A DNA stretch of 64,000 bases from an archaeon (GTDB taxonomy: Archaea; Iainarchaeota; Iainarchaeia; Iainarchaeales; CSSED10-239), in contig DAOOUC010000003.1 of the NCBI GenBank assembly GCA_035390665.1, forward strand, positions 10,742 through 74,741. The letters run 5' to 3'. Below, piece by piece: positions 3,830-40,330 of this stretch (positions are counted from its first letter, which is position 1; every line of letters starts with the position of its first letter). Below the pieces are notes generated by a model. It ran no database searches. It was not told where the DNA came from and saw nothing but the letters and a program-made list of their open reading frames with translations. The position numbers and the translations under genes were made by a program.

Positions 3830-4636
3830 ATGCCTGCATTACTAGCACACATGCATTTGGTTAAAGACCTTATAAAGGAAAATCCAAAACTATTTAGTTC
3901 TGTAGATTATAAATATTTAATTCAGGGGGCTACATTTCCGGATATTTATTATATTACTGAATTAAAATCAATTACTAAAAAACCAAACTTCAGTAAATTC
4001 ATACATGAAGCAGATAATGAATATGATTTTGCAAAAACATTATTAAGAAAATCTAAAAATAAACAAGAAAGATTGTTTGCAATTGGATTTTTATCTCATA
4101 TGATATTAGATAAAAATGTGCATAATTATCTTAAGAAAAAAGGAATTTATACTGATATTAAACATATGGTTTCAGAATATTATTTAGAAACAAAATTTCA
4201 CAACAGTAAAATACCATTGCCAAGATTTCCAAGCACATTAATAAAAGAAAGCTTAAAGGACTGCTATCCTAAAGATTATGACACATATAAAAATAAAATA
4301 AAAATATCTATTAGGTCTTTAATATTTTATGAATTTGCAAATACTTTTATAATTAAAAAGATAATTAACGGAAGATATAGAAAAGAAAATAACAAAACTA
4401 GATGGTCTTTATTAAATCTTCCATTTAAACTTGCTAGGCTTTCTAAATATAAAAAAATGGGTTATGATTATACTGCTTTATTAAACCCTGATATCACTAT
4501 AAAAGAAAAATATCTTGAAGATATCTATAAAGAATATCAAAAATCTAAAAAAGAGCTAATAAATACAATAATAGAAGAAGAATTAAATGTAGTAGATTAT
4601 ACAACCCATCAAACAGAAATAAGAGATTTTGTTTAA
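3830..4636 (+). CDS. Hypothetical protein (His-rich motifs AHMHL / LSHMILD, possible metal-dependent hydrolase)
   Basis: ORF only. Weak His motifs. Confidence 0.35.
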   Translation: MPALLAHMHLVKDLIKENPKLFSSVDYKYLIQGATFPDIYYITELKSITKKPNFSKFIHEADNEYDFAKTLLRKSKNKQERLFAIGFLSHMILDKNVHNYLKKKGIYTDIKHMVSEYYLETKFHNSKIPLPRFPSTLIKESLKDCYPKDYDTYKNKIKISIRSLIFYEFANTFIIKKIINGRYRKENNKTRWSLLNLPFKLARLSKYKKMGYDYTALLNPDITIKEKYLEDIYKEYQKSKKELINTIIEEELNVVDYTTHQTEIRDFV

Positions 4637-4883: not shown

Positions 4884-5234
4884 TTAAATCATATTAATAT
4901 TTATTTTTTGTTCTGTCTTGTTATCTACGTAATTATAATCTCTTGAATGTTCCCCTACTCTTATTTTTATTGATTTTAAACCTGGATTTGACCCAATTGC
5001 AGGATATATAAAAAACTTTATTTCTTTACTTTGATTTGGTTCAAATTCTCCAAGTCTTTTATAATCTGTATTAATGGGTTTAACTTTATCAAAACTTAAA
5101 TCTTCATCTAAAACAAGATCTATACTTAACATTTTCTTTGTTATTCCGTTTGTAAGTTTAATAAATAATTCTAATGGCTCTTTGCTTTTACTATCTAATC
5201 TATAGGGATATGTTCTTGTGCTTATTCCAATCAT
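4884..5234 (-). CDS. Hypothetical protein
   Basis: ORF in an operon-like arrangement with 4650-4883. Confidence 0.35.
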   Translation of the reverse strand: MIGISTRTYPYRLDSKSKEPLELFIKLTNGITKKMLSIDLVLDEDLSFDKVKPINTDYKRLGEFEPNQSKEIKFFIYPAIGSNPGLKSIKIRVGEHSRDYNYVDNKTEQKININMI

Positions 5235-5280: not shown

Positions 5281-5757
5281 TTATAAATCTTTTCTTGCGT
5301 GTTTTGTATTAAGTAAATAACCTTTAATTAATTTAATTCTTTCTAAATATTTATCTTTATTATATAATTTATATGCAAAATCATAACAAGTAAGTAAATT
5401 TTCTAAAGTACTAATATTTACATTTGTATTTCCTAGTATTGTATCTCCATAGTCTTTATTTTTTAAAAGAACATAAGATTGCTTATCAAAAGAGTTATCT
5501 ACCCCAATAAATTCAATTTCTATATTATTTAGATTTAAATCTAAATAATTTTTTCCTTTTTTAGATACATTTATTTTAGGGTCATATATTTTTTTTAACT
5601 TTTTAAAATCTTTATAATTTACAATAAAATCAAGATCTTTTGTTTCATTTATTATTTTTTTAAAATAAAGGACCGTTCCTCCAGTTATAAAATAATCAAT
5701 TTTGTGTCTATTTAATTCTTTGACAATTTCTATTACTGTTGGTTTTATTGATTTCAT
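5281..5757 (-). CDS. Minimal nucleotidyltransferase (Pol-beta-like NTase fold)
   Basis: ITGGTVLY...x9...TKDLDFIV matches the hG[GS]...D.D pattern of the NTase superfamily. Confidence 0.5.
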   Translation of the reverse strand: MKSIKPTVIEIVKELNRHKIDYFITGGTVLYFKKIINETKDLDFIVNYKDFKKLKKIYDPKINVSKKGKNYLDLNLNNIEIEFIGVDNSFDKQSYVLLKNKDYGDTILGNTNVNISTLENLLTCYDFAYKLYNKDKYLERIKLIKGYLLNTKHARKDL

Positions 5758-19377: not shown

Positions 19378-20598
19378 TTATTTATCAGATTTTAATTTTT
19401 CTTGCTGTTCTTTAGCTTTTATCATCTTTTGTAGCCCTTTAGCATCAAGAGTTAATCTGACTTTTCCTGTTCCTGCTGAAATTGGCTGTCCAACAATTAT
19501 GTTTTCTGTAATTCCAACAAGGCCTTCAACTTCTCCATTAAATGCTGCATTGATTATATGTTTTACTGTTTCTTCAAATGAAGCTCTAGCAAATGGACTT
19601 TTCTTTTTACCTGTAATTCCAGTTCTTACAACTCCTTGTATTATTCCTGAAGAAGTCATCATGTCTGCTAAGATATACAAGTGTCTTGTATTAATTGCAA
19701 TACCGTTAGTATCAAATGTAAACTTTAATTCTTTAACAATTGCATCTCTTGCGGCTTCAACACCAAATGCCTTATATATTTCAAAAATATCATTTGTTAT
19801 TGTTCTGTAAGTATCAACACCTTCTACTTTTAGAACTTCTTTTAAGTTTGATCCTTTTGTTTGAATCATTTTTTCTCCGTTCTTTTCTATAACAACGGCT
19901 TTTTCAATTCCTTTAACTCCATATAATTGAATTTTATTCCATTTTAATATTGCTTTTCTAATATCATAAAGTGGAGTTTTATTTCCAAAATGTAAATTTA
20001 TTTGTTGCTTATTGTTTGTAAATCTTTTAGAATCATATACTGTTGTTTTGGCTTTAGCTTTTGATTTTGTGTCTTCTTTTTTATCATTATCAATTTTTTC
20101 ATAAATTGATTCCATTACTTCTTCTTGATCTAAACCATAAATACTTGCTTTTTCTGAATCAAATTTAAATGAAACTACTCTTTCGGTGTAATTTTCAATA
20201 AAAGTCCCTACATCTCCAATCTTAACATCGACTAAATTTTTACAAAAATTATCAACATCTTTGTCTTTTTTTATAATTTCTCTATTAAGATAAATCTTCA
20301 TGGATGGATATCTTGCTTGTGAACGAGCATCAACAATTTCAATAACTCTTTGTATTCCTTGACCAACAGAAACTTCCAAAGAACCAGCATAGTGCTTTGT
20401 TCTAAGAGTTAACTGTGTTCCTGGTTCTCCTATTGATTGAGCTGCAATTAAACCAACTGCATCTCCAGGAACAACTAGGCCATCATTATACTTTTTTGTA
20501 ACAATATCTAGAAGTTTCTTTTTCTTTTCAGTGCTTAATTTTTTTATACTTGCGTATTTTTCTATTTTTTCTACAATTGAAATTGGTAATGACTTCAT
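19378..20598 (-). CDS. rpoA2: DNA-directed RNA polymerase subunit A''
   Basis: [32 protein letters not shown] (trigger-loop region of the RpoC C-terminal half). Operon position. Confidence 0.9.
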
Positions 20599-20641
20599 TA
20601 TATCACGTTTTTTTAAATTTCATTAAATTTTTTTAAATCTT

Positions 20642-20671
20642 TGCGCGCGAGCCCGAGCGAAACCGGCTCTA
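20642..20671 (-). repeat. GC-rich hairpin element starting at the rpoA' TAG stop (transcribed strand: UAGAGCCGGUUUCGCUCGGGCUCGCGCGCAA)
   Basis: Same family as 674-745 and 23281-23311. Stem GAGCC/GGCUC. Confidence 0.65.
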
Positions 20672-23260
20672 CTCGTTGAAGAAATTTATGTTCTTTCCAA
20701 GATATGATTTATCTGGGGAAAGTCCATCTTCTCCATACATGAACTGAATTACTTGTCCATCAGCTGTTGTTACTTTTAGTTCATCATTGACTACAAGGTC
20801 TTTTAAAGCATTTGATAATCTTCTATAAAGATAACCAGATACTTTTGTAGCAACACCTGTATCGATTTCACCTTGTCTACCACCCATACAGTGACAGAAA
20901 TATTCTCTTGGATTCATTCCATCAAAGAAATTACTTTGTACAAATCCATAATCCATCATTTGATTTGTTCCTTTAGGACTTAAACTTAATAATCTATCAG
21001 AAAATCCAGCTTTTGGTCTTCCTGTTCTAACAGTAACTTGTCCCCAAAGTCCAAGCATATTAGAAACATTTAGAACTCTTCCACGAGAACCACCAACACT
21101 AGCAAGTAGTATAGAATTATTATTTGTTTTCTTGGTTTCAGAAAATAATTCATCTACTTTTATTTCTAAAATCTTATCTGTAATCTTGTCTTTCATTTCT
21201 GCAGAGATTTTTAAAAGCTCATTTTCAAATGTTTCTTCAAGATTCTTTCCTGGAGTTAATGGAAGTGTTCTATCTTCATATTTCTTAACAATTGCATTTG
21301 AACTTGCAATCATTCCTTTAACTTTTGCTTTAATTTCTTTTCTTAATTCTTCTGAAGCATTGTATTCATCTAATGCAACAGTTAATCCTTTTTTAGAAAC
21401 TGCAAAGAATACTAATTTTGAAAGTTTATAATAGAAATCAATTAATGTTTCATAACCATAGTGTCTATAGATTGTTTCAATTAATGCTCTTGGAGAACCA
21501 ATTTTTTCATCTATTACTCCTGAGATTATTTTACCTTTTTCAATTTTTAAATAACAATCATATTGACATTTTTCTTTCTTACATTTCTTACAGTCTTTTG
21601 CTTTTGAAACAATTGAACATAATTTATTCTTGTATTCTATATAGAAATCTTTTGGTAATATTTGACTAAATAATAATTTACCTGAATAGTTTCCTCTTCC
21701 TCTGTCAGCCGTTGGAAGTTCTGTGATTCCAATAGAATATAATATTTCCATTGCTTCTTTTCTATTAAATTCTGTTGATTCTCTTGTTAAAATATATGCT
21801 GCTGTAATAAGATCGTGATCTGGAGTAATAACTGGTCTTCCATTTCTAATACTTATAACGTGTTTTTCTGCAGCTAAAAGTTCTTTAACTTCAGAATAAG
21901 ATTCTTCACTTTGTGGTACATGAAGATTCATATCATCACCATCAAAGTCTGCATTGTATGGATCACAAGTTATTGGATTTAATCTAAATGTTTTTCCAGG
22001 TAATATTTTTGCATAGTGTCCCATCATAGACAATCTATGAAGTGTTGGCTGTCTGTTAAATATTACAACATCTCCGTCTTGTAATCTTCTTTTAATTGTC
22101 ATTCCTTCTACTAATAATTCTGCTAATTCTTCTTTATTTTCAGGAGTTATTATTTTTCTTGATCCTTTTTCTGTCAAGATATAACTTATATCTCCTTTTA
22201 ATAATTGTGCTTTTAATCTTTCCTTATTCCATAATGTAACTTTCTCTGGAACTGTCAAAGTGTTTGCTACTTGTTCAGGTATTCCAAGCTCATTAAATTT
22301 AATATCTATTGATGGTGTTATTGTTGAACGAGCAGAAGCATTTACTCTTTTTCCTATTAGATTATATCTAAATCTTCCTTTCTTTCCTTTCAATCTTTGA
22401 GCAATTGTTTTTAATGGTCTTCCTGATCTTTGTTTTGCTGGCGGAACTCCTGCTGTGTTATTATCAATATATGTTGTAATATTGTATTGTAACAGATCCC
22501 AAAGGTCTTCAATAATTATTTGTGGAGCACCTGCATTTATGTTTTCTTGTAATCTAATATTAATTCTTACAATATCTAGCAATTTGTAAGTTAAATCATC
22601 TTCAGAAGTAATTACATTTTCTAAAGACAAAGAAGGTCTTATTGATACAGGAGAAATTGGTAAAACAGAAAGAATAAACCATTGTGGTTTTAATTTATCT
22701 GAATATCCAAATAAAAATAAATCCTTTTCTGGAACTTTTACTAACCAATCTAATATTTCTGCAGGATATAATCTTTCTCCATTTTTAAAAAAGTTTGTTG
22801 GTTTATCTAAAGCAATTTTATTTACTGCAGCTTTACAGTGTGGACATTTCTTTGTACCCTTTACTCTATTTAATATTTCTTTTACACATTTCTCATTATC
22901 TTCTGAAATAAGCATTAATTCATTTATCTCTGTTTCATCTAATAATAATTTTCCACAATCTTGACAAGTTGATGCTAAAACATAATATAATTTCTCACCA
23001 AACTTTGGATGAACTGTTGGTCTTACTAATTCTAAAGAACCAAAGTGTCCTGGGCATGCTTTCATTGTCTGTCCACAAGTTTTACATCTAAGGCCTGGAG
23101 AGATAACACCTAAGTGAGGATCCATTAATCCTCTTTCTATAGGATAACCATCTTTATCATAAGTATCTGCTCTTGTAATTTCAACAGCAGACATCTTTCT
23201 GATCATTTCAGGACTTAAAACTCCAAATTCAATGCTTTTAATTTTCTTTGATGTGTTCAT
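20669..23260 (-). CDS. rpoA1: DNA-directed RNA polymerase subunit A'
   Basis: NADFDGDDMNLHVPQS catalytic aspartate triad. Zn-binding CxxC clusters near the N-terminus. Confidence 0.95.
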   Translation of the reverse strand: MNTSKKIKSIEFGVLSPEMIRKMSAVEITRADTYDKDGYPIERGLMDPHLGVISPGLRCKTCGQTMKACPGHFGSLELVRPTVHPKFGEKLYYVLASTCQDCGKLLLDETEINELMLISEDNEKCVKEILNRVKGTKKCPHCKAAVNKIALDKPTNFFKNGERLYPAEILDWLVKVPEKDLFLFGYSDKLKPQWFILSVLPISPVSIRPSLSLENVITSEDDLTYKLLDIVRINIRLQENINAGAPQIIIEDLWDLLQYNITTYIDNNTAGVPPAKQRSGRPLKTIAQRLKGKKGRFRYNLIGKRVNASARSTITPSIDIKFNELGIPEQVANTLTVPEKVTLWNKERLKAQLLKGDISYILTEKGSRKIITPENKEELAELLVEGMTIKRRLQDGDVVIFNRQPTLHRLSMMGHYAKILPGKTFRLNPITCDPYNADFDGDDMNLHVPQSEESYSEVKELLAAEKHVISIRNGRPVITPDHDLITAAYILTRESTEFNRKEAMEILYSIGITELPTADRGRGNYSGKLLFSQILPKDFYIEYKNKLCSIVSKAKDCKKCKKEKCQYDCYLKIEKGKIISGVIDEKIGSPRALIETIYRHYGYETLIDFYYKLSKLVFFAVSKKGLTVALDEYNASEELRKEIKAKVKGMIASSNAIVKKYEDRTLPLTPGKNLEETFENELLKISAEMKDKITDKILEIKVDELFSETKKTNNNSILLASVGGSRGRVLNVSNMLGLWGQVTVRTGRPKAGFSDRLLSLSPKGTNQMMDYGFVQSNFFDGMNPREYFCHCMGGRQGEIDTGVATKVSGYLYRRLSNALKDLVVNDELKVTTADGQVIQFMYGEDGLSPDKSYLGKNINFFNE

Positions 23261-23280
23261 CTTATCAACCTTTTAAATAT

Positions 23281-23311
23281 TGCGCGCGAGCCTCAAGCGT
23301 TGCCGGCTCTA
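23281..23311 (-). repeat. GC-rich hairpin element starting at the rpoB' TAG stop (UAGAGCCGGCAACGCUUGAGGCUCGCGCGCA)
   Basis: Same family. Lies in the 48-nt rpoB'-rpoA' spacer. Confidence 0.65.
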
Positions 23312-25135
23312 GTCAATTTTATCTCCAAGTTTTAATTTTGGATATACTCCCATTGCTTTTAGTTCGTCAAGTAATAACTTGAAACCATAACTAATCTTTA
23401 CTTGGTGTACATTTGTTCCATTACATACAGGACAAAACTTTTTGTTTCTTATCTTATCATCAACTGCTGGAATTCCACAGTCTTCACAAACCATGATATT
23501 CATTTCATCAGCATCATCCATTAATTTTTCTTGCAGAGTCATTGCAGCACCGTGAGAGACTAATGCTTCGCCTTCCATTTCACCGAATCTTAATCCTCCG
23601 CCTTTTTGCTTTCCTTCTGTTGGTTGTCTTGTTAATAATTGTACTGGTCCTTTGTCTCTTGCTTGTATTCTATTTACTACAAGGTGACTTAATAATCTTT
23701 CAAATGCAAGTGGTCCAACAAATATTGGCATCTCGATTTTCTCTCCTGTTCTTCCATCATAGAAAATTTCTTTACCATCTTGTCTAAATCCATTTGCTTT
23801 TAATAATTCAAATACTGCATCTTTATCATTTAAGAAAGGAGTTCCATCTATTTCTTTTCCACTACTTGAAACAGCTTTACCTGCAATACTTTCAAACAAG
23901 TGACCAAGAGTCATTCTTGAAGGGATTGAGTGTGGATTTAAAATAAAGTCTGGTTTTATTCCTTGACTTGTAAATGGCATATCTTCTTCTCTAATTACAG
24001 CACCAACAACTCCTTTTTGAGCATGATGACTTGTAAATTTATCTCCTACTTGTGGTTCAAGATATGTTCTTATTCTAACCTTACATAATTTTGTTCCAGA
24101 AATTGTTTCAGAAACCATTACTCTGTCAACATTTCCACTTAAGTGTTTTCTTGAACAAACAGAGGTATCTCTTCTCTCTTCTGTAACAACTCCAAACTCA
24201 GAAACTTCTTCAACAAATCTTGGAGGAGATGTCATTCCGATTAATACTCCGCCTTCATCTACTGGAGACTCTAAATTTATAATTCCATTTTCATCTAAAT
24301 GTTTATATGCATCTACCCCTCTATAACCGCTAGCTTCTTCAGTAGGCACCATAAACTTATCTGTTTGCCCTGAAGGATATCTTACTTCATTAGCAGAATA
24401 TGATCTATAATATGAAGATCTTGCAAATGCTCTTTGGATTGCTCCTTGATTAATAACATATGCATCAAGCATATTAAATCCTCTATAAGGCATAATTGCA
24501 ACAATTGCATTTTGTATCATTGGTCTTTTTTCTGTATGCATTAATTTTTCTGTTCTTGTAGTTACTAATGGCTTTTGTGGATAATACAAACAATGCATTT
24601 CTGTATCAAATCTTAAATTATAATTTGCTGAAGGAATTCCTGCTGCTTGTTTATACAATTTAGCACCGTGAATTGCTTTACCAGCCATGTTGTGTTCAAT
24701 GAATGGTATCATTGAAGAAATAATACTAAAGATTCCTGTTCCAGAAATTTCAATATGTGTGTGATCTGGTGTTAATTCATCTTCAGTTAAAGCAACATAA
24801 GCATTTTCTTCTTCTTCAGCATCTAAAAATTCAACAATTCCTTTTGAAAGTAAATCTTGCCAAGAAATTTTTTTTGCTTTTATGTCTTCTAAGATTTCTG
24901 GAGTAACTCTTGATACACCTTTGTCTGCAACAATTAATGGTCTTTGTACACGTCCTGCATCTGTGTTAATATATAATTCATTTGTAGTTTCATTATATGC
25001 AATATTAACTTGAGGATCAATTTGAAGAGCTCTTCTTTTTTTAATTAAATCTGCTCTTAATTTTTCTGGATCATCATGGAATCCAATTATTCCACCGTTT
25101 AAATAAATTTTTGCTTTACCTGTTGCTTTTGCCAT
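23309..25135 (-). CDS. rpoB1: DNA-directed RNA polymerase subunit B' (C-terminal half of split RpoB)
   Basis: GQKGVVGAV, RFGEMEGEAL, C-terminal Zn ribbon CEDCG...CPVC. Follows B''. Confidence 0.93.
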   Translation of the reverse strand: MAKATGKAKIYLNGGIIGFHDDPEKLRADLIKKRRALQIDPQVNIAYNETTNELYINTDAGRVQRPLIVADKGVSRVTPEILEDIKAKKISWQDLLSKGIVEFLDAEEEENAYVALTEDELTPDHTHIEISGTGIFSIISSMIPFIEHNMAGKAIHGAKLYKQAAGIPSANYNLRFDTEMHCLYYPQKPLVTTRTEKLMHTEKRPMIQNAIVAIMPYRGFNMLDAYVINQGAIQRAFARSSYYRSYSANEVRYPSGQTDKFMVPTEEASGYRGVDAYKHLDENGIINLESPVDEGGVLIGMTSPPRFVEEVSEFGVVTEERRDTSVCSRKHLSGNVDRVMVSETISGTKLCKVRIRTYLEPQVGDKFTSHHAQKGVVGAVIREEDMPFTSQGIKPDFILNPHSIPSRMTLGHLFESIAGKAVSSSGKEIDGTPFLNDKDAVFELLKANGFRQDGKEIFYDGRTGEKIEMPIFVGPLAFERLLSHLVVNRIQARDKGPVQLLTRQPTEGKQKGGGLRFGEMEGEALVSHGAAMTLQEKLMDDADEMNIMVCEDCGIPAVDDKIRNKKFCPVCNGTNVHQVKISYGFKLLLDELKAMGVYPKLKLGDKID

Positions 25136-32402: not shown

Positions 32403-33215
32403 TTATACTAAACAATATACATTTTTTCTTTTTTCTATAATTGCTCCTTCTTCTTTTAGAAATTCTATTGTTATCTTTAAAAGCTCTGTATCTTTGTTAA
32501 GTTTCTTAGAAAGGTCTTCAATTGAGAAGTTCTTATCAAGATCACTTGAAAGTATTTGCTTTCTTGTTGTACTGTACAGAAACATATCAATGACATAGAA
32601 ATATCCATCAAATGATTTTTGCCCCTTTATTTCATCATTTTTAAATTTAGAGTAAAATTCTTTTGAAAATTTATCTGCAGTTACTACGGATTTAATAATT
32701 GTATATTTCTTTTTAAGAAAATCTTTAATTATTGTATCTGCATTTTCTTCTATTATTTTTGGTTTTTGTAAATTTTCTGATTTAATTGGTTGTTCTGTTG
32801 TTCTTTGATCATTTACTATATAAATTGCTTTCTTGTATTTCTCTGATTGTTTGAATGTAATTATTTCCTTTTCTTTTAACATTTCTTTAAATATCTCCAA
32901 ATCTTCCTTTTTTAAAAGATTTTCAAAATTTCCTTCAACTTTGTCTTTAAATGATAGTTCTTTATCTTGAAGTATATCTATTATCTTTTTTTTAATTGTG
33001 TCTTTAGAAATTGTTGACTTAATAACTTGTTTATCTTGTACAACAGAATCGGTTACACTTAATTCGCGCATATTAGTTTTAATAGAAAAAGCAATTGCTT
33101 GAGAATTAATAATTTTTATTTCAAGTTCTTTATTTGTATAATTATCTAATTCTTGAGATTCTTTATCATTATTGAAATTTAAAAAATAAGTTTGATTTTT
33201 TTTTACAATTTTCAT
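32403..33215 (-). CDS. Hypothetical protein (possible C-terminal winged-helix)
   Basis: 270 aa ORF. C-term SIEDLSKKLNKDTELLKITIEFLKEEGAIIEK is HTH-like. Confidence 0.3.
   Translation of the reverse strand: MKIVKKNQTYFLNFNNDKESQELDNYTNKELEIKIINSQAIAFSIKTNMRELSVTDSVVQDKQVIKSTISKDTIKKKIIDILQDKELSFKDKVEGNFENLLKKEDLEIFKEMLKEKEIITFKQSEKYKKAIYIVNDQRTTEQPIKSENLQKPKIIEENADTIIKDFLKKKYTIIKSVVTADKFSKEFYSKFKNDEIKGQKSFDGYFYVIDMFLYSTTRKQILSSDLDKNFSIEDLSKKLNKDTELLKITIEFLKEEGAIIEKRKNVYCLV

Positions 33216-37299: not shown

Positions 37300-40330
<3,031 letters not shown>

Follow-up and report, generated by a model that had tools for sequence, protein, structure and literature searches.

GC-rich palindromic repeats at the stop codons of rpoB', rpoA' and corA in an Iainarchaeota-like archaeon: a probable REP-type insertion element

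Introduction

In the 64-kb stretch of archaeal DNA analyzed here (hereafter the window), short GC-rich hairpin sequences begin exactly at the TAG stop codons of rpoB' and rpoA', within the RNA polymerase operon, and at that of corA. The question raised by this locus is whether so exact a placement reflects a function in the transcribed RNA or the insertion of repeat DNA, and an initial annotation of the window had allowed for both. The host genome has split rpoA and rpoB genes, an unlinked 23S gene, a GC content of 27% and very short spacers, and homologues of two of its proteins are labelled at source as 'Candidatus ainarchaeum sp.', 'Candidatus Diapherotrites archaeon' and Nanoarchaeota, which indicates a DPANN archaeon, probably one of the Iainarchaeota/Diapherotrites. 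Small genomes of the DPANN type are generally considered to contain little mobile DNA. From comparison of the window with related loci we conclude that the elements probably constitute a ~27-33-nt GC-rich palindromic interspersed repeat, a non-autonomous insertion element of the repetitive extragenic palindromic (REP) type that resembles the GC clusters of yeast mitochondria.

Results

The element family

The window holds four occurrences of the motif TAGAGCCGG-N9-11-GCTCGCGC, one behind each of rpoA' and rpoB' and a tandem pair behind corA, and TAGAGCCGG itself has four exact matches. The TAG-overlapping hairpins of the initial annotation were thereby found where they had been placed, with a variable segment between AGCCGG and GGCTC of 9-10 nt rather than the 10-12 nt given at the time. 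When one mismatch was allowed, TAGAGCCGG had six matches in the window against 1.49 expected, a number reached in none of 100 shuffles. The GC content of the window is 0.23-0.32 outside rRNA and, tRNA and 23S rRNA genes excepted, the three element loci were the only places at which it reached at least 70% over 24 nt.

Alignment of nine distinct copies defined an element of approximately 30 nt in total with a 6-bp stem, GAGCCG...CGGCTC, which is interrupted by a bulge or mismatch in some copies and in which pairing is kept in 87% of cells. Two compensatory pairs were observed (GAGCCG/CGGCTC versus CAACCG/CGGTTG), both changes being present in the copy from related locus L193. The loop of 8-11 nt is the most variable part (TTTCGCT, TTTTGCT, CAACGCTTGA and TTGCGGT), and the stem is followed by an unpaired 3' tail, GCGCGCAA, that is conserved across loci. 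The ends of the element are asymmetric (GAGCC... versus ...GCGCGCAA) and the central stem is its sole inverted repeat. At the 5' junction the four bases are GTAG in copy A (the copy after rpoA') and its L029 variant only, CTAG in copies B (after rpoB') and C (after corA), TTAG in the L032 copy, AGTG in L028, TTTG in a copy within a phospholipase-D-like (PLD) gene and GTGC in L193. The two bases before the stem are TA only in stop-codon copies; the PLD copy has TT there and L028 has GT. With TAG preceded by G, C, C or T in the individual copies, and GAGCC by TT or GT in others, the CTAG target suggested for a miniature mobile element is not general.

The folding energy of the hairpins equalled that of dinucleotide shuffles of the same 51-nt segments (z -0.25 to +0.66). 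A description as an exceptionally stable structure was dropped because the hairpins fold no better than these shuffles. The element is marked by its sequence and GC content, not by unusual folding energy.

An nhmmer profile and a covariance model were built from the copies and, together with GC-island scans, were also run on the related loci. The covariance model recovered every known copy at 34-53 bits. An origin from tRNA or rRNA fragments was rejected, since the 23S and tRNA genes of the window gave no match with either model, and other GC islands in the related loci were ordinary tRNA genes. No Rfam 15 family matched any copy, either at gathering thresholds over the whole window or at E values up to 10 over positions 20400-23500, and no inverted dimers of the kind known as bacterial interspersed mosaic elements (BIMEs) or REP doublets forming hairpins (REPINs) were present among the copies found. 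A collection scan for GAGCCGG-N7-12-GCTCGCGC followed by an A/T run returned at least 119 chance matches, and the 12 loci of lowest GC content (35-46% GC) held no related sequence. Two scans of viral contigs produced chance matches only, none of them AT-rich (contigs of 45-72% GC, the lowest in the second scan being 50%). Chance similarity or an assembly artefact, which has only the small copy number in its favor, is a negligible prospect given identical copies in independent JGI, ENA, NCBI and Logan assemblies, a 9-mer count far above that of shuffles and the covariance model scores.

Copies at stop codons in the window

Pfam searches identified split archaeal RNA polymerase genes (rpoH, B'', B', A' and A''), corA and a convergent methyltransferase gene, and full-length corA was seen in related locus L185. 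Coordinates of the copies and of the genes that they adjoin are collected in Table 1. On the minus strand rpoA' ends GAG TAG followed by AGCCGGTTTCGCTCGGGCTCGCGCGCAAAG and rpoB' ends GAC TAG followed by AGCCGGCAACGCTTGAGGCTCGCGCGCAAT, whilst on the plus strand corA ends TTC TAG (674-676) followed by AGCCGGTTGCGGTCAGCTCGCGCCCAGCC. In copy A the stem GAGCCG/CGGCTC has one bulged G and leads into the GCGCGCAA tail; copy C1, the first of the two after corA, is identical in sequence in 8 independent assemblies. The second corA copy, C2, which had been described simply as a tandem copy, is indeed present and belongs to a tandem duplication with a period of 48 nt, in which the final 8 nt of corA (TGTTCTAG) are repeated as well. 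Copy C2 lacks the GCGCGCAA tail and ends 5 nt short of the convergent methyltransferase stop codon.

According to the table of open reading frames (ORFs) and stop codons of the window, the element is present on three of approximately ten credible TAG-ending ORFs and, in sense orientation, on no TAA- or TGA-ending ORF, so the association with TAG noted by the initial annotation stands within the window. The TAG stops consist of a host TA and the first G of the element.

Presence and absence of the element in close relatives

An exact protein look-up with RpoB' returned five independent assemblies, and a scan of metagenome contigs with RpoA' returned relatives at 70-92% identity. Contigs of the source population are present in JGI 3300025706, 3300010429 and 3300009776 and in ENA ERZ795054, and the population is contained in anaerobic-digester and landfill metagenomes. 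In four of the five RpoB'-identical assemblies (L027 and L029-L031) both rpo copies are unchanged, save that copy A of L029 is 1 nt shorter. The fifth, L028, is 98.98% identical to the window in DNA sequence over 17.4 kb, and has no GC-rich element after rpoB', where an AT-rich hairpin of unrelated sequence (TAGATGAGAATTTTCTCACATAG...) is found in its place. Its copy after rpoA' is mutated and reads GAG TGA GCCGGTTTCGCTCAAGCTTAGCACGCAAAG; here the stop codon is TGA and is made up of a host T and the GA of the element. This copy (L028 14457-14487) differs from that of the window (20639-20671) by six changes in 33 nt, nearly all from GC to AT. Such divergence of copy A between strains about 1% apart would fit a very high local mutation rate in the palindrome, or a window copy that has been refreshed by gene conversion. 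The AT-rich palindrome that stands in place of copy B (L028 11828-11850, in the rpoB'-rpoA' spacer) has TAG on both sides (TAG-ATGAGAATTTTCTCACA-TAG) and no other occurrence in the DNA compared.

More distant relatives supplied empty sites. In L032 (92% RpoA' identity) a copy with a variant loop follows rpoB' (TAGAGCCGGTTTTGCTCGGCTCGCGCGCAATGG) and none follows rpoA'. In L034, L036 and L040 (85-86% RpoA' identity) the rpoB'-rpoA' spacer is 21 nt, exactly 27 nt below that of the window, so that copy B corresponds to a net 27-nt insertion (23280-23306). The empty site in these three loci reads GACTAGAG[C/T]ATTTAAAAGGTAGATAAGATG, and ATTTAAAAGG, which comes directly after [C/T], is already present without the element. 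Their rpoA'-rpoA'' spacers are 19-31 nt long and follow TGA or TAA stops. The site after rpoB' (site B) is also empty in L035, L037 and L039, and that after rpoA' (site A) is empty in L033, L034, L036-L038, L040 and L041 and lacks the element in L032 and L035 too, being filled only in the lineage of the window. Neither rpo spacer has the element in L033-L041, and each of the two sites is filled in no more than one or two lineages.

The site after corA (site C) is likewise empty in CorA relatives at 85-94% identity (L192, L193, L195 and L196), where the corA stop codon is TAA in L193 and L195 and TAG in L192. All three sites are thus presence/absence polymorphisms among close relatives, and the element changes much faster than the surrounding DNA. 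The view of the initial annotation that the element is conserved is not borne out, as both rpo spacers are empty at 85-86% RpoA' identity, the rpoB' copy is missing from a 99%-identical strain and the corA site is empty in relatives.

These comparisons bear on two explanations that place the function of the element in translation or in mRNA. One is a recoding signal, whereby read-through of UAG, pyrrolysine-type decoding or ribosomal bypass would add a C-terminal extension to RpoB', RpoA' and CorA. Behind the TAG of each rpo copy come exactly 11 in-frame sense codons and then a TAA, encoding the Arg-rich sequences SRFRSGSRAKI and SRQRLRLARNI, and the next in-frame stop after corA is a second TAG after 15 codons. 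However, orthologous RpoB', RpoA' and CorA end at the same residue in relatives, with TAA, TGA or TAG and without extension, the site A stop of L028 is TGA, the shorter L029 copy breaks the frame, seven other TAG-ending ORFs lack the element, and the TAA is part of a ATTTAAAA motif already present in empty sites. The 11-codon run (window 20596-20671 and 23258-23311) was judged a coincidence because of the L029 frame break and the pre-existence of ATTTAAAAGG in empty sites. Recoding is very improbable; the polymorphism of the sites, together with a C-terminal residue that stays the same under every stop codon used, rules out both it and a conserved operon element. A promoter (BRE/TATA) reading of GCGCGCAA-ATTTAAAA was also rejected, ATTTAAAAGG being already present in empty B sites and lying only ~15 nt before the rpoA' ATG.

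The other explanation gives the rpo operon and corA a cis-acting RNA element, in which a GC-rich hairpin behind the stop codon would protect the 3' end, serve in processing or tune termination and reinitiation. Such a role would suit the sense orientation of all three window loci, each beginning exactly at a stop codon, the stem kept across copies with its two compensatory pairs, and the occurrence of other small hairpins in the rpoA'-rpoA'' and rpoB'-rpoA' spacers of L028, L032, L035 and L037; in Escherichia coli, REPs within 15 nt of the stop codon stall ribosomes and lower translation (PMC12306157). Yet several relatives at 85-86% RpoA' identity do without the element in both rpo spacers (19-31 nt, no hairpin), the copy is replaced in the 99%-identical strain L028, other copies are antisense to transcription or within ORFs, the folding energy is that of shuffles and no Rfam family matches. 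A cis-acting RNA function is consequently unlikely, and the dedicated post-stop role considered in the initial annotation is weakened by the antisense and intragenic family members and the unremarkable folding energy.

Other features of the compared spacers were as follows. The rpoA'-rpoA'' spacer of L032 (5590-5712) extends over ~120 nt and contains two AT-rich hairpins, CCCAAGAAAAC-GAAA-GTTTTCTGGG and CCAGAAAAATC-AGAA-GATTTTTCTTGG, and a motif, GAAAAGTGT(T/C)TTCATT(C/T)CCAAAAG, is common to this region and to L035 5590-5670. As the length of the rpoA'-rpoA'' spacer varies from 19 to ~120 nt among close relatives, it represents an indel hotspot. At the corA junction, a Fic-domain gene lies between corA and the convergent methyltransferase gene in L192 (10960-12021) and L195 (10965-12026; CorA 85-94% identical). 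It is absent at this junction from L193 and from the window, where positions 677-750 hold the tandem element copies. The relatives with the Fic gene have a hairpin with a 12-bp stem (TTACCCTGGACA...TGTCCAGGGTAA) behind the methyltransferase stop codon.

Further copies away from stop codons

A further copy was found in the same organism at L197 1573-1611, ~8.5 kb to the right of where the window ends, and lies antisense within a PLD-like ORF. It is in frame and encodes TTAREPSETGS in a linker after the N-terminal membrane helix. Exactly at the insert, PLD-like homologues with 77-81% identity have 6-12 fewer residues, and the DNA of the nearest relative, L203, lacks the copy, giving a net gain of 27 nt in L197, the same size as at site B. 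Another copy (TGCAACCGGTTTCGCTCGGTTGACGCGCAATAG) is present in L193 (CorA 89% identical) between two small co-directional genes, antisense to both and 5 nt from a TAA stop. These flanking genes (L193 7903-8569, minus strand) encode 95 aa and 97 aa and are toxin-antitoxin-like; the corresponding position of the window holds a single 158-aa ORF (5281-5757). Within the window, a match at 33041-33079 probably represents a copy decayed towards AT; it scored 24.3 bits with the covariance model (E ~3e-5 over 305 kb) and only E=12 with nhmmer, and its assignment is tentative. The rule of sense orientation over TAG accordingly holds for the three window loci and not for the family as a whole. Between close relatives, gain, loss, replacement and mutation of copies are all seen, and the copies occupy unlinked sites, have either orientation to genes and can be inserted in frame inside ORFs.

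A third explanation is a DNA-level site for a host protein (a recombinase, nucleoid or restriction-modification protein) or a recombination hotspot, neither being mobile. The ends of the element are conserved and its center is variable, with CCGG and GCGC motifs in abundance, the corA site coincides with the presence/absence polymorphism of the Fic gene in relatives and the rpo spacers are indel hotspots, all of which would suit such a site. A clean 27-nt insertion in a coding region and in the operon spacers of one lineage is not what would be expected of a chromosomal protein site, however, and no partner protein was identified, so that this explanation appears less probable still than a cis-acting RNA.

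Table 1. Copies of the element in the window and the genes whose stop codons copies A, B and C1 overlap.
Feature	Start	End	Strand	Description
Copy A	20639	20671	-	TAG-AGCCGG-TTTCGCTCG-GGCTCGCGCGCAAAG (read 20671-20639); overlaps rpoA' TAG stop (TA followed by GAGCCGGTTTCGCTCGGGCTCGCGCGCAAAG); covariance model 53 bits
Copy B	23279	23311	-	TAG-AGCCGG-CAACGCTTGA-GGCTCGCGCGCAAT (read 23311-23279); overlaps rpoB' TAG stop (TA followed by GAGCCGGCAACGCTTGAGGCTCGCGCGCAAT)
Copy C1	674	705	+	TAGAGCCGGTTGCGGTCAGCTCGCGCCCAGCC; overlaps corA TAG stop
Copy C2	719	745	+	Shortened second copy (from 722); covariance model 33.8 bits
Probable AT-decayed copy	33041	33079	+	CAACAGAATCGGTTACACTTAATTCGCGCATATTAGTTT; antisense within ORF 32403-33215 (minus strand, 270 aa)
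rpoB'	23309	25135	-	C-terminal part of RNA polymerase subunit B; Pfam Rpb2 domains 4-7; TAG is the 5' junction of copy B
rpoA'	20669	23260	-	N-terminal part of subunit A, 863 aa; Pfam Rpb1 domains 1-5; TAG is the 5' junction of copy A
corA	32	676	+	3' part, cut by window start; Pfam CorA; TAG is the 5' junction of copy C1

Genomic surroundings

A complete 23S rRNA gene lies at window positions 37334-40314 (minus strand) with no adjoining 16S or 5S gene. A tRNA scan identified only four tRNAs in the window, and unlinked rRNA genes fit a DPANN-type genome. In L203 two copies of tRNA-His(GTG), at 3964-4037 and 5154-5227, are 1.2 kb apart in direct orientation, with an identical GC-rich stretch of ~70 nt. 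L204 has a single tRNA-His(GTG) copy, and the L203 pair could represent a small integrated element or a duplication.

Discussion

Mechanism of insertion

The exact fit of an insertion element to stop codons can be accounted for if the leading GAG of the element turns a host T into TGA or a host TA into TAG; sense copies would then sit exactly on stops because this GAG rebuilds the stop codon. Insertion in or just behind a stop codon with the GAG first would leave the protein intact and, where spacers are very short, would also spare the downstream Shine-Dalgarno sequence and promoter. All window loci lie on stop codons, which is more than tolerance alone should give, so that the element may prefer such targets or a hairpin behind the stop may be mildly beneficial; a true target preference for the stop-codon position is likely. 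The palindrome and the conserved tail may be the features recognized by the copying enzyme or process, for which the candidates are a HUH/Y1 transposase that recognizes hairpins, like that of bacterial REPs, and exchange among copies through recombination and gene conversion. Since copies under no constraint would decay towards AT, the intact GC-rich copies are presumably recent or refreshed by gene conversion, and copy A of L028 and the match at 33041 may represent stages of decay. The hairpin that insertion leaves behind the rpoB' and rpoA' stops in the mRNA would be a side effect and dispensable, because close relatives do without it.

Several observations weigh against an insertion element. 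No Y1_Tnp, OrfB, integrase or other transposase family was found among the Pfam hits of the window or those listed for the called genes of related loci. Apart from the stem there are no terminal inverted repeats, and there is no target-site duplication, the pairs of filled and empty sites (site B and the PLD site) showing a clean gain of 27 nt and no duplication of flanking bases. TAGAG, with which the filled junction starts, already stands in the empty B sites, and would be either the footprint of an excision or a target whose use depends on homology. Each of the three window loci starts precisely on a stop codon and has the orientation of the gene upstream. The covariation of the stem rests on one copy (L193) and its level was reached by 18 of 500 shuffles. 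Finally, approximately six independent sites are known, with about four loci in ~86 kb of the source organism and near strains, or about one locus per 20 kb. Four of the six sites are extragenic and three supply a stop codon. Of the alternatives in the initial annotation, the miniature mobile element is nevertheless the best fit, as empty sites in relatives were found, although neither a CTAG target nor a target-site duplication goes with it.

Two short flanking repeats were also considered. A TA target-site duplication of the IS630/mariner type was rejected, as TA is found on both sides of copies B and C1 only, copy A and the copy in L032 being without it, and its frequency in this genome is too high for it to be telling. 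An AG...AG flank is present at copy A (TAG followed by AGCC...GCAAAG and ATTT) and not at copy B, copy C or the PLD copy.

A bolder interpretation holds that the element is an archaeal mobile element that targets stop codons, inserting after the T or TA of the stop and rebuilding it with its own GAG, or that sense copies are kept since a post-stop GC hairpin tunes termination, reinitiation or mRNA stability in genome-reduced DPANN operons; in either form it would be a stop-linked class not described in archaea. We regard this as doubtful.

Implications

If the elements are a REP-type insertion repeat, a GC-rich hairpin placed exactly within an RNA polymerase operon would be selfish or neutral insertion DNA rather than regulation, which calls for caution with similar cases, and palindromic repeats of the REP and GC-cluster kind would extend to a DPANN (Iainarchaeota-like) archaeon with a small genome of 27% GC. 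The family is very small and easily recognized on its AT-rich background and could be a handy strain marker, and it would offer a tractable case of how mini-palindromes spread with no obvious transposase.

Comparison with known systems

A literature search for reports of REPs or MITEs (miniature transposable elements with inverted repeats) in DPANN archaea returned nothing specific. MITEs are usually 50-500 bp long, with terminal inverted repeats that match a parent insertion sequence and with target-site duplications. The archaeal element shares with them that it is non-autonomous, interspersed, polymorphic between relatives and without coding capacity, and shows neither their terminal inverted repeats, nor their target-site duplications, nor their size. 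Rickettsia palindromic elements (RPEs) are ~100-150 bp long. RPEs and intragenic REPs are inserted in frame into genes, where they are tolerated in loops and linkers, and RPEs have CGTC as their tag (PMC3733652). In its in-frame insertion the 27-nt PLD copy is similar, although RPEs are bacterial and CGTC-tagged.

Bacterial GTAG-tagged REPs, which are thought to be mobilized by the tyrosine HUH transposases termed REP-associated tyrosine transposases (RAYTs) or TnpA-REP, are the closest known system. They are GC-rich imperfect palindromes of 20-40 nt with a conserved tag that is left unpaired. Most are found shortly behind ORFs, where the neighboring genes are co-directional or convergent, and the TAG stop of the adjacent ORF is often provided by a terminus of the REP; occasional copies are intragenic and in frame, clusters repeat flanking DNA in tandem, and loops are variable and stems conserved (PMC3733652). 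The archaeal element is similarly a palindrome of ~30 nt with a 6-bp stem, a variable loop and an unpaired tail, among its few known sites mostly lies behind ORFs, in some cases supplies the TAG, has one in-frame copy and, at corA, a tandem pair that repeats flanking DNA. Unlike REPs, it occurs in an archaeal host, its conserved unpaired motif is GCGCGCAA on the 3' side rather than GTAG, its known copy density is low, no inverted dimers were seen, and no RAYT (PF01797) was found among the Pfam hits of the window and related loci. Conservation of GTAG or a close variant in more than 90% of copies, by which REPs are defined, is not seen here, GTAG being confined to the two copies named above. 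REPs are further marked by a stem of 5-13 bp, a range that includes the 6-bp stem of the archaeal element, by a high copy number and by a RAYT gene that REPs typically flank.

In genomic setting the closest analogue is the GC clusters of yeast mitochondria (e.g. GC42). These short, GC-rich palindromes are mobile within a very AT-rich genome and vary in presence between close strains, with fast-evolving loops and tandem or merged arrays, and they have no known mobilizing enzyme and a putative AG target-site duplication (PMC4478555). The archaeal element is likewise a GC-rich palindromic insertion in an AT-rich genome that is polymorphic between strains, with loops that evolve fast and copies in tandem, but the yeast clusters are organellar and eukaryotic and share no sequence similarity with it; an AG...AG flank is seen here only at copy A. 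Short palindromic interspersed repeats are a known kind of element, and it is the host that is unusual here.

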